Shown here: positions 238-28,156 of the stretch, in pieces
Layout: each line of letters opens with the position of its first letter
Numbering within the stretch: position 1 is the first letter of the stretch
IMG/VR virus record: IMGVR_UViG_3300020045_004733
Span: 1-32,287 of that record
Direction: 5' to 3' (one strand)
Source of the DNA: a virus
Lineage: Duplodnaviria; Caudoviricetes
Length of the DNA: 32,287 bases
Translations under genes and position numbers: made by a program
The notes under the pieces: model-generated
Databases searched by the model: none
The model's input: the letters and a program-made list of their open reading frames with translations, nothing else
What the model was told of the DNA's origin: nothing

Positions 238-1620
238 ATGGCAATGAACGAATACCAGAAACGGATGGACGCGGCCTTCAAGAAAATGGAAGAGATCCGC
301 AAGAAGGCAGCGGCGGAAAAGAGGGATCTGACGGACGATGAGCTGACCCAGCGGACCGCTCTCAAGGCGGAAATCGACCTGGCGAAGCGTCAGTGGGATG
401 CTTTTAAGGAAGAGGAGGAGCTTCGTGGCGAGCTTTACGGGACCGGCGGCGGCGCCCTGACGGTGGCCGATGACGCGACGATCACGGCCCCGGATGCCCC
501 GATCTATCGCGGGTCGAACGCGACCGCCCTGGGGCAGCAGCTTGCGGATATCCGCATGATCTCCGATCCGTCGTTTGACGGTCAGGAAGTCAGGAGCGCC
601 AGAAGCCGTCTTGAGCAGAGCCAAAAGCGGTATGCCGAGCGGATGAATTCCCTTGCAGAGAAAGAGCAGCGGGAAAGCAGGGCAGCCGCAACCGGTGGCG
701 CGACGATTGGCGTTCCCTCTGACGGCGGTGTGTTCCTTCAGGGCGAGACGGTGGCCGACCTGATGACCAACGGTTTTAACAACTCCGAAATCCTCCCCCG
801 GATGGCAAAGCGGACCCTTACCGCTACGCAGTTCATCGAGATTATCGGGATCGATGAACAGTCCCGGAAGGATGGCTCCCGCGGCGGTGGGATCAGGGTT
901 TACACGGACAAGGAACTTGGTTCCGTCGATCCTTCCAAGACCCAGTTCAATAAGGTTCGTGTCGAACCCAATAAGTTGACCGGCCTTTTCTATGCCTCCG
1001 AAGAGTGGCAGAAAAACGTCACCTTCATGGGGCAGGAAGTCCGGCAGCTCTTCGGCGAAGAGTTCGCCTTCAAGTGCCAGAACATCGGTGTTCGTGGATC
1101 GGGAGTCGGTGAAGGCCTCGGCGCCCTCAATGCGAATTGCCTCGTGACGGTCCCGAAGGAAACCGGGCAGAAGGCGGGAACGATCCTGTCGAAGAACCTG
1201 TCAAACATGTGGGCGCGGTTCATCGGGAAGAACCCGGCTTGGTTCATCAACCGCGATTGTGGTCCCGAGCTGGATCAGCTTTCAATCGTCGCCGGAACCG
1301 CAGCCTTGGAGCCCCGCTTCGTCACCTACGACGCGCAGGGAATCATGAGAATCAAGGGCGCCCCGGTCATCCCGATCGAGCAGTGCGAAACGGTCGGGAC
1401 AGTCGGCGACATCCTGCTTGCCGATTGGAGCCAGGTGGTCGCGGCCGACAAAGGGGACATCAATGAGGCGATGTCGATTCATGTGAATTTCATCTACGGC
1501 CAGGGGACGTGGCGCTTCACCTACTATTTCGACTGCCGGCCGCGGTGGAAGACAGCAGTGATCCCGTTCAAGGGGTCCAACTCGGTGAGCCCGCTGGTGG
1601 CACTGGCGACCAGGGCGTAA
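238..1620 (+). CDS. major capsid protein, HK97 fold with N-terminal coiled-coil delta domain
   Basis: 460 aa, SD AGGAGG. Charged helical N-terminus (KRDLTDDE), SDGGVFL, G.GxGExLG, G.PV and GDILLADW motifs, and a C-terminal SPLVALATRA. Confidence 0.93.
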   Translation: MAMNEYQKRMDAAFKKMEEIRKKAAAEKRDLTDDELTQRTALKAEIDLAKRQWDAFKEEEELRGELYGTGGGALTVADDATITAPDAPIYRGSNATALGQQLADIRMISDPSFDGQEVRSARSRLEQSQKRYAERMNSLAEKEQRESRAAATGGATIGVPSDGGVFLQGETVADLMTNGFNNSEILPRMAKRTLTATQFIEIIGIDEQSRKDGSRGGGIRVYTDKELGSVDPSKTQFNKVRVEPNKLTGLFYASEEWQKNVTFMGQEVRQLFGEEFAFKCQNIGVRGSGVGEGLGALNANCLVTVPKETGQKAGTILSKNLSNMWARFIGKNPAWFINRDCGPELDQLSIVAGTAALEPRFVTYDAQGIMRIKGAPVIPIEQCETVGTVGDILLADWSQVVAADKGDINEAMSIHVNFIYGQGTWRFTYYFDCRPRWKTAVIPFKGSNSVSPLVALATRA

Positions 1621-1682: not shown

Positions 1683-2342
1683 ATGTACGGAAAAGATTAT
1701 GTCAAAGTTCCCTTGACCTTTCCGACGGTCGATCAGACGAGCACCGTTTCGTCCGATATTTTCAGCATGAAAAACTTCGGCCATGCGGATCTCTGGATCA
1801 CGGTCGGGGCAATCGGGAAGGCGGCGGCCGTCACGCTGAATAAAAGCGCGGCAGTCGCGGCGGCAACGGTAGCCCTCGCATTCACCAGGTATTACAGCAC
1901 CGGGTTTGTCCTTGAATACGACGGCGCCTCGGTTGATGCACCGGCGGCGAAGGGCGAGACGGTGACAGGTGCCGGTGGCGGCGTCGGGCACGTCCACCAG
2001 GACCTCGGCGGAAAGCTGATCTGTTACGCCTTCAACGGAACCACCTTCGTGGACAATGAAGTCCTGACCTTCTCCGGCGGTAAGACGGCCGTGGCCAATG
2101 GCATCCAGAAAAACGAGGATATCATGGTCCCCCGGACGGCCGCGAGCAACACCTTTGACATCGCCGCCGTGGCAAACAAGCAGTATTGCATCCCTCTGGA
2201 AGGCTCCGACCTTGGAGACGGGTACGACTGCGCGCAGGTGGAAATTGCTGATTGCGACACGGCGACGCACCTTGCCATTGATGCGATCCTCAGCAAGGCC
2301 CATTACAGCGCAGAGATTCCCGAAACGGCGATTTACGACTAA
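1683..2342 (+). CDS. putative capsid cement/decoration protein
   Basis: 219 aa, SD AGGAGG, immediately after the capsid gene. Beta-rich Ala/Thr/Val/Gly composition, no signal peptide. Confidence 0.55.
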   Translation: MYGKDYVKVPLTFPTVDQTSTVSSDIFSMKNFGHADLWITVGAIGKAAAVTLNKSAAVAAATVALAFTRYYSTGFVLEYDGASVDAPAAKGETVTGAGGGVGHVHQDLGGKLICYAFNGTTFVDNEVLTFSGGKTAVANGIQKNEDIMVPRTAASNTFDIAAVANKQYCIPLEGSDLGDGYDCAQVEIADCDTATHLAIDAILSKAHYSAEIPETAIYD

Positions 2343-2400: not shown

Positions 2401-3066
2401 ATGAAAAGATTGTTTTTGATCGCCGTCATTATGATCGGGATTCTCATTCCCGGCCTTGGCTCGGCGTCTGAATTGAACAACGTCACGGCAAAAGGGGTTG
2501 ACGGGGATCTCGTTTTCTACGGGTCGGCCGGCACGGAGGTTTTTAGCATCGAGGCCGCGAATCGTCTCGTATCGTACCCTTCCGGGAGCGCTGTTGACAT
2601 TGAATCCGGCGCGTCCCTGAAACTGGCCGGAACTGCGATCACCGCCACCGCCGCCGAAATCAACCTTGCGGCTGATAACTCGGCAAACGTCGAAACCGTT
2701 ATTACCACCAACGTCATCACCGCGGCCGAAAGTGGGAAAACCTTCTTCCTCGATCTCGCTGGCGGGTTTGTTTCGACCCTTCCGGCTCCGGCCGCAGGGC
2801 TCCGGTTTACCTTCATCGTCAAGACGGCCCCGACGACCGGCAGCTATACGGTTGTCACGAACGGCACGACTCAGAAGGTTATGAAGGGTCTTGCCGTGAT
2901 CGCTGCTGATGCGGTCGGCGATGTTTCCGCCGGTGGAACCACCATCACCTTTGTTGCAAACAACGCTCTTCCCGGTGATCGCGCTGATGTGATCTGTGAC
3001 GGCACGATCTGGTACATGATCGGCTACGCTCAGGTCACGGCTGGTCTGACGATTACCGGCGAATAA
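2401..3066 (+). CDS. head-fibre/decoration-like protein with Sec signal peptide
   Basis: Start reassigned to ATG 2401 (SD AGGAGG). Leader MKRLFLIAVIMIGILIPGLGSA. Fibre-like motifs GTAITATAAEINL and TLPAPAAGLRFTF. Confidence 0.7.
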   Translation: MKRLFLIAVIMIGILIPGLGSASELNNVTAKGVDGDLVFYGSAGTEVFSIEAANRLVSYPSGSAVDIESGASLKLAGTAITATAAEINLAADNSANVETVITTNVITAAESGKTFFLDLAGGFVSTLPAPAAGLRFTFIVKTAPTTGSYTVVTNGTTQKVMKGLAVIAADAVGDVSAGGTTITFVANNALPGDRADVICDGTIWYMIGYAQVTAGLTITGE

Positions 3067-3127
3067 TTAACCCCTCCCCGGCGTGGCCGGTCCCAACGAC
3101 GGCCCGCCTTAACATGAGGATCGAATA

Positions 3128-3616
3128 ATGAAACGAATAATCTTTACCATCGCCCTGGCCCTGGCGCTTCTTCCATCCTCATTGTGGGCCGCAGCAGCTC
3201 CCGGAACATGTACGCAGGCCTTTTCCGAGGTCTACAGCGCCAGTGGTCCTACTCAGCTCGCCACCCTGACCTTCACCTGCACCGCTTCGGCGGATGATGC
3301 CTCTTTCCCCTCAACGGCAACATCCTCGACCATCACGGATCAGATTGCGGGCAGGAAAATCCTTGAAGTCCGCACCAACCCCGGTGCCACCGCCCCCCAA
3401 GCCCTCTACGACATCGTCCTGAACGACTCGGACGGGATCGACCTTATGGGCGGGACTCTGGCGGATCGGAGCGCGACAGCATCACAGCGGGCAATCCCCG
3501 CCCTTGCAACCGGAATCTACGGAGGGTCAGCAATCACCGGGGCCTTGACTCTGGCGATCACCAACAACAACGTCAACTCTGCCGTGACTGTGATCACGGT
3601 CATCTTGTCGAGGTAA
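3128..3616 (+). CDS. exported beta-rich protein with Sec signal peptide
   Basis: Leader MKRIIFTIALALALLPSSLWA. Thr/Ala-rich with two Cys. SD GAGGA. Confidence 0.7.
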   Translation: MKRIIFTIALALALLPSSLWAAAAPGTCTQAFSEVYSASGPTQLATLTFTCTASADDASFPSTATSSTITDQIAGRKILEVRTNPGATAPQALYDIVLNDSDGIDLMGGTLADRSATASQRAIPALATGIYGGSAITGALTLAITNNNVNSAVTVITVILSR

Positions 3617-3622
3617 GCGGCC

Positions 3623-4252
3623 ATGAAAAGGATCATACTTGCAATCTTCATTGTGCTGCTTTCCTCGACCGTGGCCGGTGCTCAGTTCTATTATGCGGGT
3701 GGCGGCGGTTCCACGACCGTCATCGACGCCCTAACATCCACCAGTACGACATCGGCCCTGAGCGCGAATCAGGGGAAGGTTTTGAAGGACTTGCATGATG
3801 GGCAGGCGGTGGATAACTATGACTCTGGCGGGGCGGGTGTGGTCTGTAAGGATGGGTCATACAACATCATCAAGTGTACGTCTATCGCCATCACCGGAAC
3901 CATTCAGGGCGGTGTCCTTGTTTCCTCCTACGCAAACGGCATGAGCGCGGCAGAAATGACCGCTGCTGGAGTCTATGGCACTCTGTTCATCGCCACGGGA
4001 GCAGGAACATGGACTCTTCCGGACGCGGCAGGGGGTGAAAGCCTTTGCCTTATGAGCAGTGGTGCGGCGGCTGATCTTATCCTTGACGTAACGGCAGGGT
4101 CAACCATTCGCCTCAAGGGAACAGAGCAGGCCGACGGTGTAGGCATCACTCAGGCGGCGGCAAAAGCAGCGGGTGATTTCGTCTGCGTCGTGGCTGTGGC
4201 TGCTCATAAATGGTCAACAATGGGCATCGGCGGAACGTGGGTTAGTCAATAA
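3623..4252 (+). CDS. fibre-like protein with Sec signal peptide
   Basis: Leader MKRIILAIFIVLLSSTVAGA. Phage fibre repeat DALTSTSTTSALSANQGKVLK. C-terminal TLPDAAGG domain resembles that of 2401..3066. Confidence 0.7.
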   Translation: MKRIILAIFIVLLSSTVAGAQFYYAGGGGSTTVIDALTSTSTTSALSANQGKVLKDLHDGQAVDNYDSGGAGVVCKDGSYNIIKCTSIAITGTIQGGVLVSSYANGMSAAEMTAAGVYGTLFIATGAGTWTLPDAAGGESLCLMSSGAAADLILDVTAGSTIRLKGTEQADGVGITQAAAKAAGDFVCVVAVAAHKWSTMGIGGTWVSQ

Positions 4253-4262
4253 CAGGAGGCGT

Positions 4263-4487
4263 ATGAAAAAGCTATTTTTATCACTCATTCTCTTACTGGT
4301 TTCCTCTCCGCTCTATGCCGCTGGTCCTGCGATGATGGTGGGGGCGGGAGCATGGAAGGATGATTCCGACGCAGACGCAGTTACCGCCATGAGTACGGAA
4401 CCTACAGTTGTATATTTCGGCTTCAACACGGTCACGGACGACGTATATATTGACGATGTGTTTATCTACTCTACGAGGGGGATATAA
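4263..4487 (+). CDS. small exported protein (74 aa), possibly internally deleted
   Basis: ATG 4263 with SD AGGAGG. Leader MKKLFLSLILLLVSSPLYA. Ends in LamG-like YIDDVFIY. Confidence 0.6.
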   Translation: MKKLFLSLILLLVSSPLYAAGPAMMVGAGAWKDDSDADAVTAMSTEPTVVYFGFNTVTDDVYIDDVFIYSTRGI

Positions 4488-4488
4488 C

Positions 4489-5934
4489 ATGAAAAAATAC
4501 TTGGCTTACGTTCCGATCCTTCTCGCTGTCCTCTGCGCGGTTGACGGCTTTGCCGCTTCCTTCAACGTGGCCGACTACGGCGACGGGATATGCACGAAGG
4601 CAAACTTTGAATCCGCCTACGCTGCGGCATCTGCGAATGATACCATAGTGTTCCCGTTAAGCGGAACTTGCACATGGACGGACTCAACGACAATCAGCAA
4701 ATCCCTGACAATTAATGGAAACGGAACAACCCTGACGGCGGGGAACCATCTGCATAACGGGTTTTTCTATATCACGAACTTCATCAGTACGGATATGATG
4801 CGGATCACCGGATTTGTGCTTAATGGAGTTGACCATACTGCGGAGGGGCATGGGATCAGAATAGGCAATACAATCGACCTAACGAAACTAAGGATTGACC
4901 ATAACACCTTCCATTTCTTCTATGAGGCGATTGACGTAGGCGGATCATTCGGCGTGATAGATAACAATCATTTTTACAATTCTCTCAAGGGGATTGCGTT
5001 TACAGCGGGAAGCACAGCACAGGCGGCTGCTTCGTGGGTTTCAATGGCGGCGGGAACCGCGAACGCATTGTTCATTGAGGATAACCACTTTATTGACGAT
5101 GCGAATTATCCAACTATCTACTGCCAGGAAAAGATAGGGACAGACAACGGTGGGAAAATAGTCGTTAGGTATAACGAGTTTGATTTCGATAATATTCCCG
5201 CTGCCACAAACCCTACCAATGGTACATCACAACCGTTCATGGCCCACGGAAGCGCGGCTGGCGGCGTAGCAAATGGCTATTGGCAAATAGGGACAGGAGC
5301 AAGGCGGGGGCAGTCAGTTATTGAGTTTTACGAAAACACGATGCACGCCGGAGGGAAAAAGATAAGTTATCTATATGTCTCTCGCGGCGGTGCGAACCTT
5401 GTTTATAACAACCATATTACAGGAACAGTCGCAAATGCCCCGCGTGTCTATTTTTACGAAGAAGAAACATATGTAACGTCAAACTGGCCCGTTTCCCGCT
5501 CCGCATGGCCTGCTGAGGATCAAGTTCACAATTCATTTATTTGGGGGAACACCTACAACGGGAGTGCGTATTTTAACCAATCTTCTCATGTGACATTGGG
5601 GCCGCAAAATTCTTATTGCACAGAGGCAGGCTTTATGGGTGCAACCGTAGCCTCATGTTGTACCGGAGCGGGGACGGGTAACTGTAATATAATCACAGAG
5701 AATCAGGAATACTTCCTCCACGCTCCAGCAGCAACCGGAGGTAAGGCATCATTCACCGGATTAAACGGAGGATCAGCGACGGCTCCAACTGACGGAACGA
5801 CATATCCGACGCTCGGAAATATGACGTTTTCAGAGGAGGGGCCAAACGCTTATTACGACTACACCCCATACCAGTACCCTCATCCATTACGAGGAATAAT
5901 AAAACGCGCACCATGGCGTATAGCGACACCATAG
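4489..5934 (+). CDS. exported right-handed beta-helix (pectin-lyase-like) protein, putative polysaccharide binding/depolymerase
   Basis: ATG 4489 with SD GAGGGG. Leader MKKYLAYVPILLAVLCAVDGFA. Asn-ladder repeats IDHNTF, IDNNHF, IEDNHF, VRYNEF, FYENTM, VYNNHI. C-terminal YTPYQYPHPL. Visibly more AT-rich than its flanks. Confidence 0.75.
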   Translation: MKKYLAYVPILLAVLCAVDGFAASFNVADYGDGICTKANFESAYAAASANDTIVFPLSGTCTWTDSTTISKSLTINGNGTTLTAGNHLHNGFFYITNFISTDMMRITGFVLNGVDHTAEGHGIRIGNTIDLTKLRIDHNTFHFFYEAIDVGGSFGVIDNNHFYNSLKGIAFTAGSTAQAAASWVSMAAGTANALFIEDNHFIDDANYPTIYCQEKIGTDNGGKIVVRYNEFDFDNIPAATNPTNGTSQPFMAHGSAAGGVANGYWQIGTGARRGQSVIEFYENTMHAGGKKISYLYVSRGGANLVYNNHITGTVANAPRVYFYEEETYVTSNWPVSRSAWPAEDQVHNSFIWGNTYNGSAYFNQSSHVTLGPQNSYCTEAGFMGATVASCCTGAGTGNCNIITENQEYFLHAPAATGGKASFTGLNGGSATAPTDGTTYPTLGNMTFSEEGPNAYYDYTPYQYPHPLRGIIKRAPWRIATP

Positions 5935-5964: not shown

Positions 5965-6210
5965 ATGGACGGACGAACATTATCAGACGCAGACATAGAA
6001 GCGATCAGCGAGGCGGTAGCTGTGCGTCTCCCGGTGTGTTCGCTCGGTCTCAGTCCTGAGGATGCCACGATCATCAAGAACCATCTCGGGCTCTACAAGC
6101 GGGCGTGCAGCATCATCGGGAATGTCATTTTAACTGCGATTGCTCTTGTGCTGGTTGCAGTTGTCACGAAGGGGATATGGGCATCGTTGATTGAAGGGGT
6201 AAAAAAATAA
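5965..6210 (+). CDS. single-TM membrane protein, holin/antiholin candidate
   Basis: Hydrophobic IIGNVILTAIALVLVAVV and basic C-terminus. Abuts the endolysin gene. Confidence 0.55.
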   Translation: MDGRTLSDADIEAISEAVAVRLPVCSLGLSPEDATIIKNHLGLYKRACSIIGNVILTAIALVLVAVVTKGIWASLIEGVKK

Positions 6211-6654
6211 ATGAACGTCCGCGACCTCATAAAGCAGCATGAAGGCTACTCATCGACGGTCTATAAATGCCCGGCAGGGAAGCGCACTATCGGATGGGGC
6301 CATAACATCGAAACCCGCCCACTTCCCGCGGATATAGCAGGGCGGCTACACGCCAACGGGGTTATCCTCCCGGATGACGCTGAACGGATCCTTTCTGATG
6401 ACATCGCAACGGCGGTGCAGGACTGTCAACGGGTCTATTTCGGGTTCGATCAATTCAGCGAGGCGAGAAAGTCGGCTTTGACGGATTTCATGTTTAACGC
6501 GGGGATGACGACAGCGTTGAAGTTCGTGAACATGCGGAAGGCGATCATCGACGGCGACTGGAACCGGGCGGCGGATGAGATGTATTTCAGCCGATGGTTT
6601 GAACAGGTCGGAGACAGGGCCGAAGCGATCATCGGCATGGTGAGGCAGGGATGA
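6211..6654 (+). CDS. endolysin, GH24 (T4-like) lysozyme
   Basis: HEGYSSTVYKCPAGKRTIGWGH gives an E-x8-C-x5-T triad. Also DFMFNAG and AADEMYFSRWFEQVGDRA. Confidence 0.92.
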   Translation: MNVRDLIKQHEGYSSTVYKCPAGKRTIGWGHNIETRPLPADIAGRLHANGVILPDDAERILSDDIATAVQDCQRVYFGFDQFSEARKSALTDFMFNAGMTTALKFVNMRKAIIDGDWNRAADEMYFSRWFEQVGDRAEAIIGMVRQG

Positions 6655-6920: not shown

Positions 6921-7129
6921 TGTATTGTGGATACTGCGGAAGCAACCTTCATACGATTACGAATTGCCCAAAGACGGCCAGCGGACAGGCGAACAGGCAC
7001 CTCCTTCGATGCACTTATTGCGGATCGCGTGAACACGATATTCAGGCGTGCCCGAAAACATGGGGCGGAAATGCAGCGAGGGCGTGGCACCATGAGACGG
7101 TAAAAGACCATTTTGTAAAGGATCGATGA
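6920..7129 (+). CDS. tandem CCHC zinc-knuckle protein (69 aa)
   Basis: ATG 6920 overlaps the upstream TGA. CGYCGSNLHTITNC and CTYCGSREHDIQAC are both exact CX2CX4HX4C. Confidence 0.8.
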   Translation: MYCGYCGSNLHTITNCPKTASGQANRHLLRCTYCGSREHDIQACPKTWGGNAARAWHHETVKDHFVKDR

Positions 7130-7362
7130 TGGGGAAATATGTTGATGTCCCGATAGATGCAGCAAAGCGGATCGCTGATGAATTTGGCAAGGATCAAGTC
7201 ATTATTGTTTGCTGGGATAAGATCCACGGAAGAACCCACGTCACGACCTACGGAAAGACCGTTGAAGAATGCGAACAGGCGGCAAAGGGCGGGAACTTTG
7301 TCAAGAAGGCGCTCGGATGGCCGGATAAAATGTGCCATGCCCAACCGGAGCGGAAGGCATGA
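7126..7362 (+). CDS. hypothetical protein
   Basis: 78 aa, ATGA-coupled at both ends, globular composition. Confidence 0.7.
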   Translation: MMGKYVDVPIDAAKRIADEFGKDQVIIVCWDKIHGRTHVTTYGKTVEECEQAAKGGNFVKKALGWPDKMCHAQPERKA

Positions 7363-7439
7363 AAACCGCACTGGTCGGCAAAATGAAACAGAAGGCCCTC
7401 ATCAAGAGGGCGAAACGGCGGAAGGGGAAGAGGAAATGA
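7359..7439 (+). CDS. 26-aa highly basic peptide
   Basis: MKTALVGKMKQKALIKRAKRRKGKRK. ATGA overlaps at both ends exactly bridge its neighbours. Not in the ORF track. Confidence 0.5.
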   Translation: MKTALVGKMKQKALIKRAKRRKGKRK

Positions 7440-7942
7440 AAGATCTGACCGCATATGAATCAGTCAAGGATGCCATGAAGACCGGCGACCTCCTGCAATG
7501 GCGGTCAAATTCCCTCATTGGCTCCCTGATCCGGTGGAGAACGAAGTCGAACGTCAACCACTCGTCTCTGGTCCTTCGGCTCTCTGAATACGAAGGCCTT
7601 GAGCGGCGGCGGTTCACTACCGAGGCTCTTGAACATGGAACGGTCCTGAACTACCTTTCCCGGCGCCTTGAGCAGTTCGACGGCGAGGTGTGGTGGTATC
7701 CCCTCAAGGACGAATGGAACGAGAAGCGGCAGGCCGTCGGTGAGTGCGCCCTATCTCTGATCGGCATCCCCTACGACTATCAGAGCATCATGCACCAGAT
7801 TTTCGGCAAGGTTTCGGCGGATGCGCGGTCCCTGTTTTGCTCGGAATACTGTTTCATCTGCTACGGGATGGACGGAAAGGCCCCGACGCCGGCCGACATG
7901 CCTGAACTGGGGATCTACAAGGAAGGGGTGAAAATATTATGA
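7436..7942 (+). CDS. permuted papain-like NlpC/P60 amidase (YiiX/YaeF-like)
   Basis: Start reassigned to ATG 7436. KTGDLL, NHSSLV (His), GIPYD and LFCSE (Cys) occur in permuted order. Confidence 0.85.
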   Translation: MKDLTAYESVKDAMKTGDLLQWRSNSLIGSLIRWRTKSNVNHSSLVLRLSEYEGLERRRFTTEALEHGTVLNYLSRRLEQFDGEVWWYPLKDEWNEKRQAVGECALSLIGIPYDYQSIMHQIFGKVSADARSLFCSEYCFICYGMDGKAPTPADMPELGIYKEGVKIL

Positions 7943-8109
7943 TCGACACGAACCAATTCCTTCTTGATTTCATCGGCTCCAACTGGATGGCCCTGATTAT
8001 CGTTTATGGGGTGTTCCGGGCCATGTTCCCCAACTCGAAGATATTGACGGCCCTCGGTGAAGGGTTCTCCGGGTTGTTTCCGCAGCTCAGAAAGAAGGAT
8101 CAGCCATGA
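7939..8109 (+). CDS. small membrane protein (56 aa), second holin candidate
   Basis: MIDTNQFLLDFIGSNWMALIIVYGVFRAMFPNSKILTALGEGFSGLFPQLRKKDQP. ATGA-coupled on both sides. Not in the ORF track. Confidence 0.55.
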   Translation: MIDTNQFLLDFIGSNWMALIIVYGVFRAMFPNSKILTALGEGFSGLFPQLRKKDQP

Positions 8110-9065
8110 ACGTGCAAATCGTCACGCCTCCGAGCATTGAGCCGATCACCATTCAGGATCTGGCCGATCAGGCGTATCTCGATCCCGACACCTTGTCGGA
8201 GAACCTGACGCCCTACGCCTGCACGCCTGCCGGTAGCCACCCGGTGACGACGGATTACACCCTTTTCGGCGCAGCGGTAGAGGTCATCGGCAAGAAGGCC
8301 CTCGTTTACCTGAGGCCGACGAACAACGGCACCGGGGCAACGGTTGATTGCAAGATCCAGGAGAGTGACGACGGGACGGCGTGGACCGATTGGAAGGTGA
8401 GCGGGGTTGTCCAGGCCTTCACTCAGGTCACGGAAGCGAACGACACCACCATCCAGGAGAAGGAATACACCGGAGCAAAACGGTATATCAGGACGGCCAG
8501 CAAGACGCTTGTCCTGACCTGTGAGTTCGGCACCGATGTGATCGTTAAAGAGGCGGTGAGTGCAGAAAGTACCCTCCTGACGGCGATCATCACGGCAGCC
8601 CGTGAGCATGTCGAGGACATCACGCGGCGGGCGCTCCTGACGCAGGAATGGGACTATTGCCTGAACGAATGGCCGGAAGGCGACGCAATCAAATTGCCCT
8701 TTGGAAATCTGACCACCGTGACAAGCGTCTCTTGGAAAGACACGGACGGGACGGAAACGATATTGACGGCCGGGACCGACTACATCGTTGAGACGAACGG
8801 CGAAGGTATCGGGCGTGTGGTTTTGCCGTATGGGGTGAGCTGGCCGTCGGGATGCCTTTACCCCTCGAATCCGATCAAGGTGCGCTTCGTTTGCGGTTGG
8901 ACGGCGGCGGCGAGTATCCCCCGCAAGATCAAGGTGGCGCTCCTGATGATCTGCAAAGGGCTTTATGACAACAGGGAGGATCAGACCTTCGGGAATTATC
9001 AGTATCAGGAAAACAGGGCGGTCAAGGCGCTTTTGGCCAGTTCGAGGTTGCATGATGAATTTTAA
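8106..9065 (+). CDS. head-tail connector (gp6/gp15-like, phiE125 gp8 family) with inserted beta-sandwich domain
   Basis: N-terminal VTPPSIEPIT, LITAAREHVEDITRRALLTQEW, and IPRKIKVALLMICKGLYDNRE. About 125 aa of extra internal sequence. Confidence 0.85.
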   Translation: MNVQIVTPPSIEPITIQDLADQAYLDPDTLSENLTPYACTPAGSHPVTTDYTLFGAAVEVIGKKALVYLRPTNNGTGATVDCKIQESDDGTAWTDWKVSGVVQAFTQVTEANDTTIQEKEYTGAKRYIRTASKTLVLTCEFGTDVIVKEAVSAESTLLTAIITAAREHVEDITRRALLTQEWDYCLNEWPEGDAIKLPFGNLTTVTSVSWKDTDGTETILTAGTDYIVETNGEGIGRVVLPYGVSWPSGCLYPSNPIKVRFVCGWTAAASIPRKIKVALLMICKGLYDNREDQTFGNYQYQENRAVKALLASSRLHDEF

Positions 9066-9816: not shown

Positions 9817-11103
9817 ATGTTTTCGATTATTATCCCCATTTTCAACCAGCACGACATGACCGAGGACTGCATCACAGCTATCCGCGAATGCACGCAGGAC
9901 TGTGAAATCATCATCATTGACAACGGATCAACGCCCCCCTTCAAGGCCCCCTTCACCGGGGATATTGAGACGCGGGTGATCCGGAACGAGGAAAACAGGG
10001 GCTTCCCGGTGGCAGTAAATCAGGGAATCCGGGCGGCGAAGGGCGAGACGATCATCCTTTTAAACAACGATGTGGTGGTGACTCCGGATTGGGCGGCCCG
10101 GCTCGAAAGCCATATCACCCCTCTTATCCTGACGCAGCAGGAAATAAAAGATGGGTTTCAGGTTGGCGGCGTTCCTTTGTCGATCGTCGGCCCGCTGACG
10201 AACTATGCCGCGGGCCTTCAACGGGCGCAGATCGCTGACTATCAAAACAAAGAGGAACTTTACAAAGAAGCCTCTGCCCTTTCCGAAGAGCAGGCCGGAG
10301 AAGCGGAAGAGGTCAACTTCGTCATCGGATTCTGCATGGCCTTCAAGCGGTCCCTCTATGACGAGATCGGCCCCTTTGACGAATCCCTGTGGCCATGCTC
10401 CGGGGAAGAGATTGACTTTTGCCTCCGGGCACGGGCGGCTGGCCATAGGATCGGGATTGCCCATGATGTCTATGTCCATCACGAGGGTTCGCAGACGTTC
10501 AAGATCATCGATGCCGACTATGACGCCATTGTGAAGCGAAACGACGCCCACCTTGCCGAGAAATGGGGCGCGGACTTCTGGCAACGTCAAGCGGTTGTGC
10601 CGGCCTGCGAAGGGGTGCGGCTCAACCTTGGGTGCGGTCCTTTTCCGATGCAGGGATTCACGAACGTCGACCAATTTCCAGAGGTCAACCCGGATCTCGT
10701 TTGCGACATAACGGCCCTGCCGTATGAGCCCGGAACGGTCAGTGAGATTTACGCCGGGCATGTCCTTGAACACTTCATGTTTGCGGACGGCCAGAAGGCC
10801 CTGCGCTACTGGCTGACCCTCTTGAAGCCGGGCGGATTGATTAGTGTCGTGGTTCCTGACTATGATTTTCTCGTGAAAGAGTACGTCAAGAACATGACCC
10901 CGGAAAAGCTGATCGAGTTCAACGACACCTATATTTACTCGGGGATTCAGCCGTCGCCGCACCTTTACGCATACAGCGCGGCCCTCCTTGAGAAGTGCAT
11001 GGCAGAGGCGGGCTTCGCAAACATTGAGCGGATGCCGGTCAACCATCCCTATTTCCCCTTTGCTGTCGATTGGCAATGCGGGTTTCAGGGGGTGCGGCCG
11101 TGA
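9817..11103 (+). CDS. GT2 glycosyltransferase fused to C-terminal class I SAM methyltransferase
   Basis: GT2: SIIIPIFN, IIIDNGS, NRGFPVAVNQG, LLNNDVV, EEIDFCLR, VHHEGS. MTase: LNLGCG, GFTNVD, HVLEHF, LKPGG. Confidence 0.93.
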   Translation: MFSIIIPIFNQHDMTEDCITAIRECTQDCEIIIIDNGSTPPFKAPFTGDIETRVIRNEENRGFPVAVNQGIRAAKGETIILLNNDVVVTPDWAARLESHITPLILTQQEIKDGFQVGGVPLSIVGPLTNYAAGLQRAQIADYQNKEELYKEASALSEEQAGEAEEVNFVIGFCMAFKRSLYDEIGPFDESLWPCSGEEIDFCLRARAAGHRIGIAHDVYVHHEGSQTFKIIDADYDAIVKRNDAHLAEKWGADFWQRQAVVPACEGVRLNLGCGPFPMQGFTNVDQFPEVNPDLVCDITALPYEPGTVSEIYAGHVLEHFMFADGQKALRYWLTLLKPGGLISVVVPDYDFLVKEYVKNMTPEKLIEFNDTYIYSGIQPSPHLYAYSAALLEKCMAEAGFANIERMPVNHPYFPFAVDWQCGFQGVRP

Positions 11104-11771
11104 AAATAAGCAATCAGAAACTGGCAATCGGCATCCCCTGCACGTTCCCGCTTATCCCGGATGGCTTCTTCTACTCCTACGCCCTAATGGAAAAGCCGGA
11201 GCATGTCTTTATCCATGCCGACAACGGGCCGATTGATACCTTGCGGAACGACATCGTTAAAAAGGCTCTGATGGCCGGGGCTACAAGATTGATCATGCTT
11301 GACGTGGATATGATCTATCATCCCCAGACAATCACGCGGCTCCTGTCTCACAAGTTGCCGGTGGTTGGTGGCCTGACCTTCCGCCGATATCCACCTTTTG
11401 ACGCCCTCATGCTCAAGGTAAAACCGATCAATGAGCATGTCAACGGCTATGAGAGTGTAGAGGAATGGGGGAAAAATGAACTGATCGAGGTGGACGCGAC
11501 CGGGGCCGGGTGCCTCATGTTCGACATGGAGATTTTCAAGAAGATGCCGCGCCCGTGGTTCCGGTTTCAGAAGCAAGAGGAAACGGGGTCCGTCATAGGC
11601 GAAGACATCGGATTTTGCCAGGAATTAAAGGCGGCAGGATATCGGATCTTCGTTGATACCTCCATCCCTTCGGACCATCTGACAAGGATTGCGGTAAATG
11701 AGGCGACGCACCGCCTTTATACGGCGTGCAAGAGCGCACAAGCGGCAAAGGCCGCCCTCGCGGGCGGGTAG
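11100..11771 (+). CDS. GT-A fold glycosyltransferase (GT2-like)
   Basis: GTG start overlaps the upstream TGA. RNDIVK, MLDVDM (DxD), VDATGAGCL, GEDIGFC, GYRIFVD. Confidence 0.85.
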   Translation: MKISNQKLAIGIPCTFPLIPDGFFYSYALMEKPEHVFIHADNGPIDTLRNDIVKKALMAGATRLIMLDVDMIYHPQTITRLLSHKLPVVGGLTFRRYPPFDALMLKVKPINEHVNGYESVEEWGKNELIEVDATGAGCLMFDMEIFKKMPRPWFRFQKQEETGSVIGEDIGFCQELKAAGYRIFVDTSIPSDHLTRIAVNEATHRLYTACKSAQAAKAALAGG

Positions 11772-18247: not shown

Positions 18248-19393
18248 ATGGGAAACGAGATTAAGTGGTCAAAGACGGGATTGATCGGCGGCGGCGGTTC
18301 AGATCTGGACGGCATCGACGGGGCGACCATTACGGCAGGAGATTACGCTTTTGTGGGTATCAACGGCTTGATGCATCTGTTTAAGGCGAACGGAGCATCA
18401 AGCGCGGCGACGAACTCACCGTTCAATATTGCGCCGGCCACGAACCCCGGAACGGTCAGGTGGGAGCTTCAACAGACTTTCCCCTTCGGGGCGAATGTCC
18501 ACAACCTCAAGCCTGTCGTCAATGCGGCCGTCAATAAGTTGGATATTTTCGCCAAGTCGTCCGGCCTGGCTCCGGCAGGAAATAATATCATCGGCGTTTC
18601 AATCCCTGACGGCAACGGAAACAGCTTCCGGACCCGAGGCGCGGCCTACCTCTCGGGTACGTCTCAGATCGTCATGGCTGACGCTGCTAATTATTGGAGC
18701 AAGGGCAGTCTCGATGCTGAGATAAAAACCGCATGGCTCTATGCCATTTGGGACGGCACAGGGATTGTCTGGGCGCTGGGTGGATATTCGGGATTCAATG
18801 TGGTTCCGACGACCACCACGGCGACGGATGATGACTATTTCCTCCTTGAAGATGGGTCCACCTACACCCGCAACTCCGCTCATTTCTGCGTGGCTGTGAC
18901 CAAAATTAGGTATCAATATGACACCGCAGACACACCCGACCATACCATCCAAGCTAGCGGGGGGAATGCGCCGATGGTAAAATGGAACCCTAAAAGCGAT
19001 TACGGGTATCAGAAAAATCTATCATCGGACATCACGTCCGCAGGCGACATGGCCGCATCGTCGATCCTGTCGTTGGTTGTTAAGCAGTCTGGCGTATATA
19101 ATATCATTATGGATATTACTGCAAACAATGGGACTCCTAACGCTTGGGCTGCTGCTGTGCTGTATATTAAAACCGGAAACGCGACATACGCGTCGGCAGT
19201 AGAGCGTAGGAAAGCAACTGGATCATCCGCCCGTGATGCGACAATCGGAGCAGTCGTTAATCTCAGCACATCGGTTAAATTATTTCTTGATGCTGGTGAT
19301 ACCATACACATGGGGGCGGGGGTTACATCCTCTGCAGGAACAAGAACAATTTCCGCGACAGATACGGGGTTCAATTTTACCAAGACAGATTAA
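18248..19393 (+). CDS. tail fibre / receptor-binding protein candidate
   Basis: Last gene of the late operon. N-terminal GLIGGGGSDLDGID...RW anchor and C1q-like C-terminus (SGVYNI...FLDAGDTIH). Confidence 0.65.
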   Translation: MGNEIKWSKTGLIGGGGSDLDGIDGATITAGDYAFVGINGLMHLFKANGASSAATNSPFNIAPATNPGTVRWELQQTFPFGANVHNLKPVVNAAVNKLDIFAKSSGLAPAGNNIIGVSIPDGNGNSFRTRGAAYLSGTSQIVMADAANYWSKGSLDAEIKTAWLYAIWDGTGIVWALGGYSGFNVVPTTTTATDDDYFLLEDGSTYTRNSAHFCVAVTKIRYQYDTADTPDHTIQASGGNAPMVKWNPKSDYGYQKNLSSDITSAGDMAASSILSLVVKQSGVYNIIMDITANNGTPNAWAAAVLYIKTGNATYASAVERRKATGSSARDATIGAVVNLSTSVKLFLDAGDTIHMGAGVTSSAGTRTISATDTGFNFTKTD

Positions 19394-20079
19394 TGAACAT
19401 ACTTCATTATTCCCCCCGCGATCTTCTGATACCCCTGCCGGTTCGGATGCACCCCGTCGTCGGTGTCGTCCGGGCCGAGCAGAGCGGGAGTGTTGACGTA
19501 GTTCGGGCAGAACAGCTTTATTTTGTCGTCAAACTCCTGAATCCTGGAGTTTTGCAGAGGCACCCCGGCCGGCCACCATCCATCTGATTTAGAGTGGTCC
19601 ATCAATGGAACGCCGACACAGATCACCCGCTTTGCCGGGAGAGCGAAATACAGGGCCTTGTACTCCGCGACAATCGAATCAATAGGAGCGGTCAAATCCT
19701 TTAAATTATTGAATCCCGCAAACAATACTACTGTGTCGGTCTGGCTGTGGTCGTAAATGCTGGTTATAAATGCCAGTTGTGCGCCGGATGCGCCCCGGAT
19801 GTCTGCTCCGGGAAACGCTTCTTGCCAGTCGTAAGCCGTGATTACCTTCTTATTGACCAGATCATAGGACAGCCCCGCCGCCATGCTGTCACCCTCGAAA
19901 CGTGGGGGGGAGGGATGTCTGTATGCTGGCGATAATATAGCCGCTGGCGGCAGAGGTGTGGTTGGGGCTGATTCTCCACCACCACCGCCGCAAGAGATCA
20001 GGAGTAGAGGTAATACGAGCAAGCGAAAAACGCAACGAGAGCCCCACTTATTTACGCACGGTGTGTCACCCTGTGTCAC
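19390..20079 (-). CDS. SGNH/GDSL hydrolase lipoprotein (moron)
   Basis: Lipobox LLLISC followed by a Gly/Pro linker. Blocks GDSM, GASGA, GFNN and DGVHPN. Start uncertain; GTG 20079 assumed. Confidence 0.8.
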   Translation of the reverse strand: MTQGDTPCVNKWGSRCVFRLLVLPLLLISCGGGGGESAPTTPLPPAAILSPAYRHPSPPRFEGDSMAAGLSYDLVNKKVITAYDWQEAFPGADIRGASGAQLAFITSIYDHSQTDTVVLFAGFNNLKDLTAPIDSIVAEYKALYFALPAKRVICVGVPLMDHSKSDGWWPAGVPLQNSRIQEFDDKIKLFCPNYVNTPALLGPDDTDDGVHPNRQGYQKIAGGIMKYVH

Positions 20080-20252
20080 AATGCGGCAAAAGCGCGGTGG
20101 GGTGTTTTTGTAAGTTGGCGGAAGCGCATGGGAATCGAACCCACCTGGGAGGGTACTAGCCCCCCACTCCGGATTTGAAGTCCGGCTTGCTTTGAGTATG
20201 AACATAATAATTTCACCTATTTAGTTTTATTTTTAGTGACACATGTGACACA
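20062..20252. repeat. putative integrase arm-type binding repeats flanking attP
   Basis: TGTGTCAC at 20062 and 20072. Inverted GTGACACA at 20236 and 20245. Confidence 0.7.
20116..20185 (-). tRNA. 3' fragment of tRNA-Sec (anticodon UCA), putative attP core
   Basis: Minus strand: CCGGA-CTTCAAA-TCCGG anticodon arm, long variable arm, GTGGG-TTCGATT-CCCAT T-arm, GCGCTTCCGCCA end. No 5' acceptor strand (GGAAGCG) or D-arm upstream. Confidence 0.88.
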
Positions 20253-26317: not shown

Positions 26318-26836
26318 ATGAACAAGCCCACAAAGGAACAGATCCTGGAATCCATCGCCGCCGGAATGAACGTGAAAGAACAGGCGAAGCATTTCGGCAT
26401 CGGGCTGAGCGCCTTGATGTTGAGGCGGAAAAAGTTTGGCATTTCGGGGAAGGAAGGCAAGACGGGCAGGAAAGTGGGGTCAGCGACTATTGACTACACG
26501 ACGATTGACGCCATGCTTAAGGATCAAGACAAAACAATGCCGGACATAGCAAAGGAAGTTGGGTGCTCATGGATGTGCGTGCGGAATCGGTGGTTAAAAA
26601 CTCATCCGGGGACAAAATATAAGTGCCTGTCACGAGGGACCAACCACAACCGGATCACGCCGGTCAACCTCCTGGGGGCAATGGGATACAATTACGCCGA
26701 GGAGTTGGAAAAGGATTTTCACCGGCTTCACAGGGCGACGTTTCCGTGTGTCCCTTGGGACAAGTTCCGGGCGGCGATCCATGAACTTTGTGCGAGGGGG
26801 ATTAATCCGCTGGCGGGAAATGGGAGGGTGGCGTGA
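26318..26836 (+). CDS. double HTH DNA-binding protein
   Basis: GMNVKEQAKHFGIGLSAL and TMPDIAKEVGCSWMCV. Confidence 0.65.
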   Translation: MNKPTKEQILESIAAGMNVKEQAKHFGIGLSALMLRRKKFGISGKEGKTGRKVGSATIDYTTIDAMLKDQDKTMPDIAKEVGCSWMCVRNRWLKTHPGTKYKCLSRGTNHNRITPVNLLGAMGYNYAEELEKDFHRLHRATFPCVPWDKFRAAIHELCARGINPLAGNGRVA

Positions 26837-27969
26837 ATGAACTTAGCCTATTCACAGGCGCAGGCGGCGGCCTCCTCGGTTCCCTCCTTCTTGGACATAC
26901 CCCAATCGGATACTGTGAGTGGGACGATTACTGCCAGCGAGTCATTGCCGCCCGAATCCGTGACGGAATCCTGCCCGACGCCCCTATCTTCGGCGATATC
27001 AAAACATTCATCAGTGACGGGTACGCCGCAAGCTATGCGGGGCTGGTTGATGTCATTACCGCCGGTTTCCCTTGCCAGCCGTTCAGTGTCGCCGGAAAGC
27101 AAAAAGGAGCCGACGACGAGCGGAATATGTGGCCGGCAACGGCAGAGTGCATTGGAATTGTGCGCCCCCGATTCGTTTTGCTTGAAAACGTGCCGGGAGT
27201 CCGTACCTACCTGCCCGTGGTTGTTAGAGACTTGCGCCGACTTGGGTATGAAGTTTCAAGACCCCTCCTCCTTGGGGCTGACGATGTTGGGGCGCCGCAC
27301 CGAAGGAAACGGGTGTGGATACTTGCCAACAGCACAGCAGCGGGATTATCGGAGTCCAGACCTTCCGGGATCGGTGAATTACGAGCGGAAAGCGGCGAAG
27401 GGATGGACGATAGACCTGAACAGCAAGATTGCCTTACTACCAACCCCCCGGAAGTGCATGACGGGCGATATTTCGGAAGAGCGGAAGGCAGACAGGTTCA
27501 ACAATCTGGAAACGGTATTGAGCAGAGAATTACTTCCGACTCTGAGCGTTACCACGACAGGAGGACCGACGGGCCTTTGCGGAGGATCGGGGAACAGGAA
27601 GAAGTTCAACAGAATGTGGGGGCAACTCCCCACGCCCCGAGCCGAGAAGCATACCCCGCAGAGCCGGGCGGACTTCACGCCGAACCTTGCGGCGAGGATT
27701 CAGGAATTGGCCCCAACCCCTTCCGCCTCAATGGTGACAATGCAGGACTTCGTGCAGGCGAAATATCACAGTTCCAAAAGGCCGAAGTATTCGGAGGTGA
27801 TGCTGCCGACACCGAACATGATGGACGGAGGGAGCAAGGAGACGCACAGGGGCGAGGGAACGAGGCTGAAGCTGTTGGGAGCGGTCAGTGGACAGAGCCG
27901 TGGCCTGAAGTTGCAGCCCGCCTTTGTGGAATACATGATGAACTGGCCGGAGGGGTGGACGGCACTTGA
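26833..27969 (+). CDS. C5-cytosine DNA methyltransferase, alpha chain (motifs I-VIII)
   Basis: SLFTGAGG (I), GFPCQPFS (IV), ENV (VI), HRRKRVWI (VIII). Lacks motifs IX and X. Confidence 0.9.
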   Translation: MNELSLFTGAGGGLLGSLLLGHTPIGYCEWDDYCQRVIAARIRDGILPDAPIFGDIKTFISDGYAASYAGLVDVITAGFPCQPFSVAGKQKGADDERNMWPATAECIGIVRPRFVLLENVPGVRTYLPVVVRDLRRLGYEVSRPLLLGADDVGAPHRRKRVWILANSTAAGLSESRPSGIGELRAESGEGMDDRPEQQDCLTTNPPEVHDGRYFGRAEGRQVQQSGNGIEQRITSDSERYHDRRTDGPLRRIGEQEEVQQNVGATPHAPSREAYPAEPGGLHAEPCGEDSGIGPNPFRLNGDNAGLRAGEISQFQKAEVFGGDAADTEHDGRREQGDAQGRGNEAEAVGSGQWTEPWPEVAARLCGIHDELAGGVDGT

Positions 27970-28156
27970 ACCCCTCCCCCTGGAAAGCATGGAAAAATGG
28001 TTATCAGGAACGACATGGGATGAACCGTGGCCCGACGCAGCGCAGCGGTTGTGCCAAGCCGGAAACGTTTCGGATAGGGTGAATCGGCTGAAGGCGTTAG
28101 GGAACGGGCAGGTAAGCGTAGTGGTTGCAACAGCATGGAGGATTTTAACGCAATGA
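26837..28156 (+). CDS. C5-MTase beta chain in overlapping +1 frame (LPTP repeats, motifs IX and X)
   Basis: Six LPT(P)-type repeats, LQPAFVEYMMNWPEGWT (IX-like) and RLKALGNGQV (X). True start uncertain. Confidence 0.8.
   Translation: MNLAYSQAQAAASSVPSFLDIPQSDTVSGTITASESLPPESVTESCPTPLSSAISKHSSVTGTPQAMRGWLMSLPPVSLASRSVSPESKKEPTTSGICGRQRQSALELCAPDSFCLKTCRESVPTCPWLLETCADLGMKFQDPSSLGLTMLGRRTEGNGCGYLPTAQQRDYRSPDLPGSVNYERKAAKGWTIDLNSKIALLPTPRKCMTGDISEERKADRFNNLETVLSRELLPTLSVTTTGGPTGLCGGSGNRKKFNRMWGQLPTPRAEKHTPQSRADFTPNLAARIQELAPTPSASMVTMQDFVQAKYHSSKRPKYSEVMLPTPNMMDGGSKETHRGEGTRLKLLGAVSGQSRGLKLQPAFVEYMMNWPEGWTALEPLPLESMEKWLSGTTWDEPWPDAAQRLCQAGNVSDRVNRLKALGNGQVSVVVATAWRILTQ

Follow-up and report, generated by a model that had tools for sequence, protein, structure and literature searches.

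Sec-type leaders on five appendage-like proteins encoded beside the capsid gene of a tailed phage: candidates for virion parts finished in the periplasm

Introduction

In the textbook view, the whole assembly of a tailed-phage particle takes place in the cytoplasm. Cleaved leaders on virion proteins are known from the filamentous phages, whose pIII and pVIII are membrane-anchored and assembled during extrusion without lysis, pIII also having disulfides. Among the outer parts of tailed phages, branching domains of the gp9/gp10 type dock other fibres, and capsid decorations such as T4 Hoc and Soc, lambda gpD and T5 pb10 bind mature capsids spontaneously. Here, we analyse a stretch of Caudoviricetes DNA (IMG/VR record IMGVR_UViG_3300020045_004733; "the window" denotes this whole linear virus record of 32,287 bases, which is 88% complete), in which five consecutive genes, open reading frames (ORFs) A to E at 2401..5934 on the plus strand, encode appendage-like proteins that each begin with a Sec-type leader. 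The loci of relatives with which the window was compared carry L numbers.

Two described head appendages serve as references. In the part of its description that was available, the capsid spike gp52 of phage Pa223 is a trimer anchored to the capsid by its N-terminal 41 residues (10.1101/2025.06.11.659172). For RcGTA, the available part of the report states that residues 2-10 of the head fibre bind a jelly-roll base pentamer and that the head spike binds capsule polysaccharide (PMC7296036). A preliminary description of the window, made from its letters alone, had proposed that the five proteins may be exported, acquire their fold and their disulfide bonds in the periplasm and join virions at lysis. 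Our analyses favour a reading of this kind, in which the proteins are exported, folded in the periplasm and then docked on heads at lysis, and we give it a probability of roughly 0.55.

Results

All five reading frames lie where the preliminary description had placed them, each with an ATG start and a site resembling a Shine–Dalgarno (SD) sequence, and the cassette directly follows the capsid and cement-like genes, in agreement with its earlier assignment to the head region. ORF A (2401..3066; 221 amino acids, aa) has a leader (residues 1-22), a putative N-terminal anchor domain, a short helix and a gp9/gp10-type knob; ORF B (3128..3616; 162 aa), a leader and a single jelly roll with C28 and C51, is a putative spike base; ORF C (3623..4252; 209 aa) is a short fibre with a leader, a Gly linker, a tail-fibre repeat and a C-terminal knob with two invariant Cys; ORF D (4263..4487; 74 aa) consists of a leader and a mature chain of 55 aa; and ORF E (4489..5934; 481 aa) has a leader, a right-handed beta-helix and seven Cys. 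The ORF lister also gives E a longer form with a TTG start at 4408, which would overlap D. Two of the proteins contain the motifs that had earlier been recognised as those of virion fibres, GTAITATAAEINL and TLPAPAAG in A and DALTSTSTTSALSANQGKVLK and TLPDAAG in C, and the DALTSTSTTSALSANQGKVLK of C corresponds to PF22337 (E 1e-11). Pfam and PHROGs gave no match for A, B, D or E.

The leaders were called with a heuristic rule that asks for a basic n-region, an uncharged stretch of nine residues with a mean Kyte–Doolittle hydropathy of at least 2.2 and small residues at -1 and -3. The rule assigns a Sec/SPI leader to exactly the five of the 51 window ORFs that the preliminary description had picked out. 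In shuffled controls, it fires on 27 of 5800 versions of the late ORFs, which number 29, and on 60 of 5000 versions of the five cassette proteins; that five positives among these late ORFs should all be consecutive has a chance of 2e-4. Canonical small residues at -3 and -1 are present in all five, and by the same rule none of them has a lipobox or a second membrane helix. Cleavage sites were predicted by the rule together with comparison with leaderless homologues, and the leaderless homologues of A and B start at the predicted site. On these sequence features, export of the five proteins is well supported. Promoter-like sites show no excess that would separate the cassette from the late operon (six sites against 4.9 expected).

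The preliminary description had suggested looking at whether homologues after the capsid gene occur with or without leaders, and in close relatives both forms fill the same slots. Nine phages with capsids 63-82% identical were compared (that of L003 being partial): in four of them (the window, L002, L136 and L031), the gene in the slot of A is leader-bearing, and in five (L003, L122, L131, L135 and L173) it is leaderless. The A of L003 reads M-ELCNV at its start and has a GGAGG site of its own, 48 bases beyond the preceding stop; the corresponding start of the predicted mature A in the window is S-ELNNV. In L173, a prophage in genome G233 with a capsid 63% identical and the same type of cement protein, the whole sister cassette is leaderless: the gene in the A slot, a Cys-free B that is 45% identical, and a third protein that appears by eye to be a beta-helix. 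The tree of B requires at least 13 gains or losses of the leader, and a leader on B is associated with a leader on the next gene (p 0.03). Read from these comparisons, the leader is a switchable add-on, gained or lost slot by slot.

The structure model of A has a predicted local distance difference test score (pLDDT) of 92.7, and fold comparison of this predicted model gives the distal knob the gp9/gp10 fold. The knob matches that of the capsid spike of Pa223 (9NY6) over residues 68-189, with E 9.5e-5 and Z 11.0, the root-mean-square deviation being 2.2 over 98 residues; the knob also scores Z 10.9 against a gp10-type baseplate chain, tied with Pa223, and Z 9.6 against CBA120 TSP4. The first ~60 residues of A are conserved in L122, L131, L135, L101, L132 and L099, each time in the gene that follows cement, and lead there into six different, unrelated C-termini; a conserved N-terminal domain with unrelated C-termini is the pattern expected of an anchor domain, and we therefore regard that of A as a putative anchor. 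From its knob and this domain, A is a putative trimeric head spike that would be held N-terminally on the capsid or the cement protein. Its homologues number 1088, with a leader in 11 of the best 119 others. Sequence searches of the PDB with profiles of A, B and C returned nothing meaningful, A had no match in the cultured-phage collection, and Bdellovibrio MAT entries compared with its first 48 residues reached a Z of about 3 only.

The model of B (pLDDT 97) shows one jelly roll, for which fold comparison gives matches tied at Z 6-7.8; these include capsid (cement) chains of Pam1, KHP40 and GP4 as well as non-viral domains. In BFVD, the best matches of B (E 1.5e-10) are viral proteins without a name. 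Because cement chains stand level with non-viral domains in this tie, the identity of B as a spike base is unproven and the name putative. B has 728 homologues, and leader classes were taken from 151 distinct sequences, 112 with a leader, 31 leaderless and eight unclear, the last being left out; the leaderless forms begin MAGT at the predicted cleavage site. The cultured-phage collection holds one match, a leaderless protein of Methanosarcina virus MetMV. A pattern scan of GTDB found no B; profile searches of bacterial genomes found it in three of 151 and nine of 301 sampled genomes, and judged by flanking ORFs in views of 3 kilobases, all 12 loci look like phage (prophage) DNA. In L135, at ~6940-7420, a leader-bearing homologue of B is broken by an in-frame stop, either as a pseudogene or through an assembly error.

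Paired Cys had been claimed for several of the five, and in the mature chains, this holds for B (two) and C (four) and fails for A (one), D (none) and E (seven). Both Cys of the B pair are present in 99 of the 112 leader-bearing homologues vs. two of the 31 leaderless ones. The metagenome-assembled genome (MAG) that hosts L136 contains a VKOR gene and a weak DsbA-like match; VKOR occurs in one of the two host MAGs and DsbB in neither, that of L136 included. Given the B pair and the VKOR and DsbA-like genes of a host MAG, disulfide formation in the exported chains is plausible on sequence grounds.

The shaft repeat of C matches PF22337 with 44.7 bits against a cut-off of 27, and PHROGs places the protein with the tail proteins of phrog_25379. 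Its knob, in which the two Cys of the C-terminal domain are invariant across the family, has 20 matches, 11 with a leader; the other nine start mid-protein and are probably fragments. The mature start of C is aromatic and Gly-rich. A knob of the same kind ends a leader-bearing fibre of 2615 aa in L148 (537-8384). C-like fibres in L035, L147, L151 and L132 are followed by D-like partners of 185-290 aa: the N-terminus of D resembles those of the 193-aa partner in L035 (blastp E 1.2e-5 over residues 1-30) and the 185-aa partner in L147, and its C-terminus resembles, by eye, the ends of the partners in L151 and L132. Because both of its ends resemble these longer proteins, D is probably an internally shortened adhesin. 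For E, the ESM Atlas feature and structure neighbours indicate a right-handed parallel beta-helix, leader-bearing homologues occur in L099 (E 5.9e-10) and L149 (E 2e-10), and the protein is likely to bind or cut glycans; the search for E found no viral loci, and no anchor domain was identified in it.

Leader-bearing A or B genes, together with their neighbours, are interspersed among those for terminase, portal, capsid and adaptor both in sipho-like phages (L002, L099, L101, L122, L130, L132 and L136) and in podo-like ones (L024, L067, L116 and L123), and the order base, fibre, small partner and beta-helix recurs whole or in part in L035, L132, L149, L151 and L174. Where a fibre follows a leader-bearing B, a short peptide rich in Pro often comes directly behind its own leader (L002, L035, L132, L151, L163, L166, L167 and L168). 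In L147, three genes after the tape measure gene, a leader-bearing fibre with the C knob has an N-terminus 43% identical (E 3e-12) to that of the leaderless last gene of the tail module in the window (18248..19393, plus strand). In other phages, this N-terminal domain stands behind the leaders of C-family fibres, and in L154 and L156 it is leaderless; the product of this window gene is also 39% identical to P0246 (E 2e-14) and matches P0255 (E 2e-8).

Several further genes in these neighbourhoods deserve mention. A membrane-anchored tetratricopeptide repeat protein is encoded between the leader-bearing A-slot gene and B in L031 (6270-6941), and in podo-like phages, additional genes with leaders occur between the portal gene and that for scaffold or capsid (L024 3398-3847, L123 1737-2315, L098 8488-9411 and L103 6907-7779). 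In L112 (2259-3830) and L113 (4329-5906), the start called for the major capsid ORF gives a signal-peptide-like leader, and may be miscalled.

By Pfam and PHROGs, the late genes of the window include families for an HK97 capsid, a lysozyme, a head-tail adaptor, a head closure protein, a tail terminator and two glycosyltransferases; a 942-aa gene after these is read as the tape measure from its position and length. The leaderless HK97-type major capsid protein (244..1620, plus strand; PF05065, E 1.8e-19; phrog_10) is 66% identical to that of L136, a prophage in a Syntrophorhabdus MAG whose cement-like protein is 83% identical to that of the window; because L136 is the closest named relative, a diderm syntrophic anaerobe is the likely host. 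The leaderless cement- or decoration-like protein itself, with an inserted domain (1683..2342, plus strand), is named from its ESM Atlas neighbours, unnamed Uroviricota clusters, of which one with 13% Bbp16 members falls under the naming bar, and from a slot conserved in all close relatives; it is the likely docking partner of A. Directly 3' of the cassette (5965..6654, plus strand) come a small membrane protein (5965-6210, its membrane segment seen by reading the sequence) and a lysozyme (6211-6654; PF00959, E 8.2e-16), and the lysis region also contains a permuted papain-like amidase (7436-7942, plus strand) with a weak match to PF05708 and a 46% identical homologue in L174.

Elsewhere in the window, the head-tail adaptor (8106-9065, plus strand) has an inserted domain of ~90 aa (phrog_5707), conserved in close relatives, that may be another docking site for an appendage. 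Between the tail terminator and tail tube genes lie two leaderless glycosyltransferase genes (9817-11771, plus strand), one a GT2 enzyme fused to a methyltransferase-like domain, with counterparts in L003, L009 and L010. We rejected these as part of the leader system, as they are leaderless and occur in those three phages, whose A is leaderless; virion glycosylation independent of the leaders is a possible role. On the minus strand, next to an integrase-like gene, 19390-20205 encodes an SGNH/GDSL hydrolase whose sequence contains, internally, a stretch resembling a lipobox (LLISC), likely a lysogenic-conversion lipoprotein with a later start codon. Two long frames overlap at 26833-28156 (plus strand), 26833-27969, which looks by eye like a DNA cytosine methyltransferase, and 26837-28156; the pair resembles two-part overlapping methylase genes.

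Discussion

The gene order, the leaders, the fold of the A knob, the fibre repeat of C and the leaderless twins in the same slots are what the window and its relatives show. With leaders on proteins that close relatives carry leaderless, these outer parts are likely folded outside the cytoplasm. We suggest that the five genes beside the capsid gene would be expressed late and their products exported by Sec, cleaved and folded in the periplasm, and that the folded appendages would dock onto finished heads once lysis breaks the inner membrane. A would be the trimeric head spike, anchored by its N-terminal domain on capsid or cement; B would be a base holding the fibre C by the short N-terminal peptide of C that signal peptidase has freed; D and E would be distal parts that bind or cut glycans, D being probably degenerate in the window; and B and C would acquire disulfides via the VKOR/DsbA of the host. 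Joining at lysis would need no extra machinery, because capsid decorations such as Hoc, Soc, gpD and pb10 bind mature heads unaided. The proposal of the preliminary description stands in so far as the parts are of virion-appendage types and their export is indicated by sequence; docking on virions is the part that we infer. It had also considered that the mature domains might match only host cell-surface proteins, and what we find instead is the fold of a solved capsid spike in the A knob, prophage-like loci for B and slots that hold leaderless versions.

Several observations weigh against this reading, the first being that the step from export to the virion is itself inferred. The window yielded no identifiable spanin pair. 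The fold matches of B are generic (Z < 8), and the nearest Atlas clusters of E are mostly bacterial beta-helix proteins. That the knob of C is a proven homologue of that of A was rejected; profile similarity is absent (hhalign probabilities of 3.4% and 0.75%), and a short motif is all that the two have in common. For A, having a leader is no significant predictor of a leader on the gene that follows (p 0.23), and the single Cys of A occurs in leaderless homologues too. The link between leader and Cys pair in B is not significant after correction for kinship, with five independent pairs on strong branches and a median p of 0.25 in sign tests, and the search profile for B had been seeded with four leader-bearing proteins. 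Across loci, an even Cys count is found in 36 of 59 leader-bearing ORFs vs. 465 of 1046 others (p 0.015), a weak bias, and without B in 25 of 44; mature D has no Cys at all and E an odd number.

The strongest rival, which we hold to be possible though on balance unlikely, is that recruited appendage proteins now act in the host envelope and never join the particle, either masking or cutting the glycan receptor of the phage itself, so as to block superinfection or release progeny from debris, or serving as a surface adhesin; a cell-surface appendage was also the alternative named in the preliminary description. Sec export would keep such proteins apart from the assembling heads, E resembles secreted bacterial glycan lyases, and the cassette lies directly before the lysis genes in the window and after them in L174. 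There are precedents, too: the available part of one report describes phage-like fibres with signal peptides in Bdellovibrio (PMC10769870), and that of another reads signal-peptide genes of Porphyromonas gingivalis phages as envelope modifiers (PMC10367356). However, the leader-bearing forms retain putative virion anchor domains, namely the N-terminal domains of A and of the tail gene, and substitute for leaderless forms slot for slot; the heuristic rule finds no lipobox or second membrane helix in any of the five, and promoter sites do not set the cassette apart from the late operon.

Clearly less probable is that periplasmic folding is not involved at all, the leaders being either temporary inner-membrane tethers that stay uncleaved before lysis or bypassed by internal starts. 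D does have two Met codons just past its predicted cleavage site and A one inside its h-region, and the available part of the P. gingivalis paper suggests that prohead protease removes signal-like leaders of capsid proteins (PMC10367356). B, C and E, however, lack a Met near the cleavage site, all five leaders have canonical residues at -3 and -1, and the Cys pair of B tracks the leader. Finally, it is hardly credible that the leaders stem from miscalled starts or are N-termini that merely happen to be hydrophobic: while the calls rest on a heuristic rule, its false-positive rate on shuffles is 0.5-1.2%, the run of five has p 2e-4, SD sites are present and the leader is conserved in 112 homologues of B.

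If periplasmic maturation followed by docking at lysis is true, the Caudoviricetes have an unrecognised maturation step that yields disulfide-bonded adhesins, and many phage genes taken as "secreted, host-modifying", together with "secreted CAZymes" (carbohydrate-active enzymes) of prophages, are virion parts. It seems to us an even bet that a wide range of tailed phages infecting environmental bacteria with two membranes (diderms) complete their virions beyond the cytoplasm in this way, through Sec export, periplasmic disulfides and clipping on to heads and tails at lysis, with the leader as a gene-by-gene evolutionary switch. The natural pairs with and without leaders (the window vs. L003, L122 and L173) make the question directly testable.

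In comparison with known systems, A shares with Pa223 gp52, as far as the available part of its description goes, the C-terminal knob fold and the layout of N-terminal anchor and distal knob; gp52, however, is modelled from residue 2, so no leader has been removed, is 13% identical and has a long triple beta-helix that A is without. The branching domains of T4 gp9/gp10 and CBA120 TSP4 (1QEX, 9F4A and 7REJ) have the same knob fold (Z 9-11) but are tail baseplate parts built in the cytoplasm, whereas A is leader-bearing and encoded next to the capsid gene. In the RcGTA head spike (base Rcc01079, fibre Rcc01080; PMC7296036), the jelly-roll base with a peptide-held fibre resembles, in the part available, the layout that B and C would have; the term "signal peptide" was not found in the main text of that paper, whereas B and C have leaders, and 6TB9 and 6TBA are absent among the fold matches listed for B, whose pairing with C is our proposal. 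The short N-terminal peptide of the RcGTA fibre recalls the Pro-rich starts in relatives, the start of C in the window being aromatic and Gly-rich instead. The Bdellovibrio MAT fibres, in the available part of their report (PMC10769870), are likewise phage-like and have signal peptides, but they are chromosomal cell-surface adhesins with a conserved domain of ~130 aa after the leader and lie outside any phage morphogenesis operon. Filamentous phages, finally, differ from the phage of the window, which has an HK97 head, a tail and a lysozyme. In the open literature, as covered by listings and the beginnings of abstracts with subscription journals and supplements outside the search, we found no description of Sec-exported virion appendages in tailed phages. 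Judged from sequence, the parts of the cassette are of known kinds, and what appears new is their export in a tailed phage, for which we found no published description; to the known systems, the window adds closely related natural pairs that differ in the leader, a sister cassette that is leaderless throughout, a match to the fold of a capsid spike and a likely host group.

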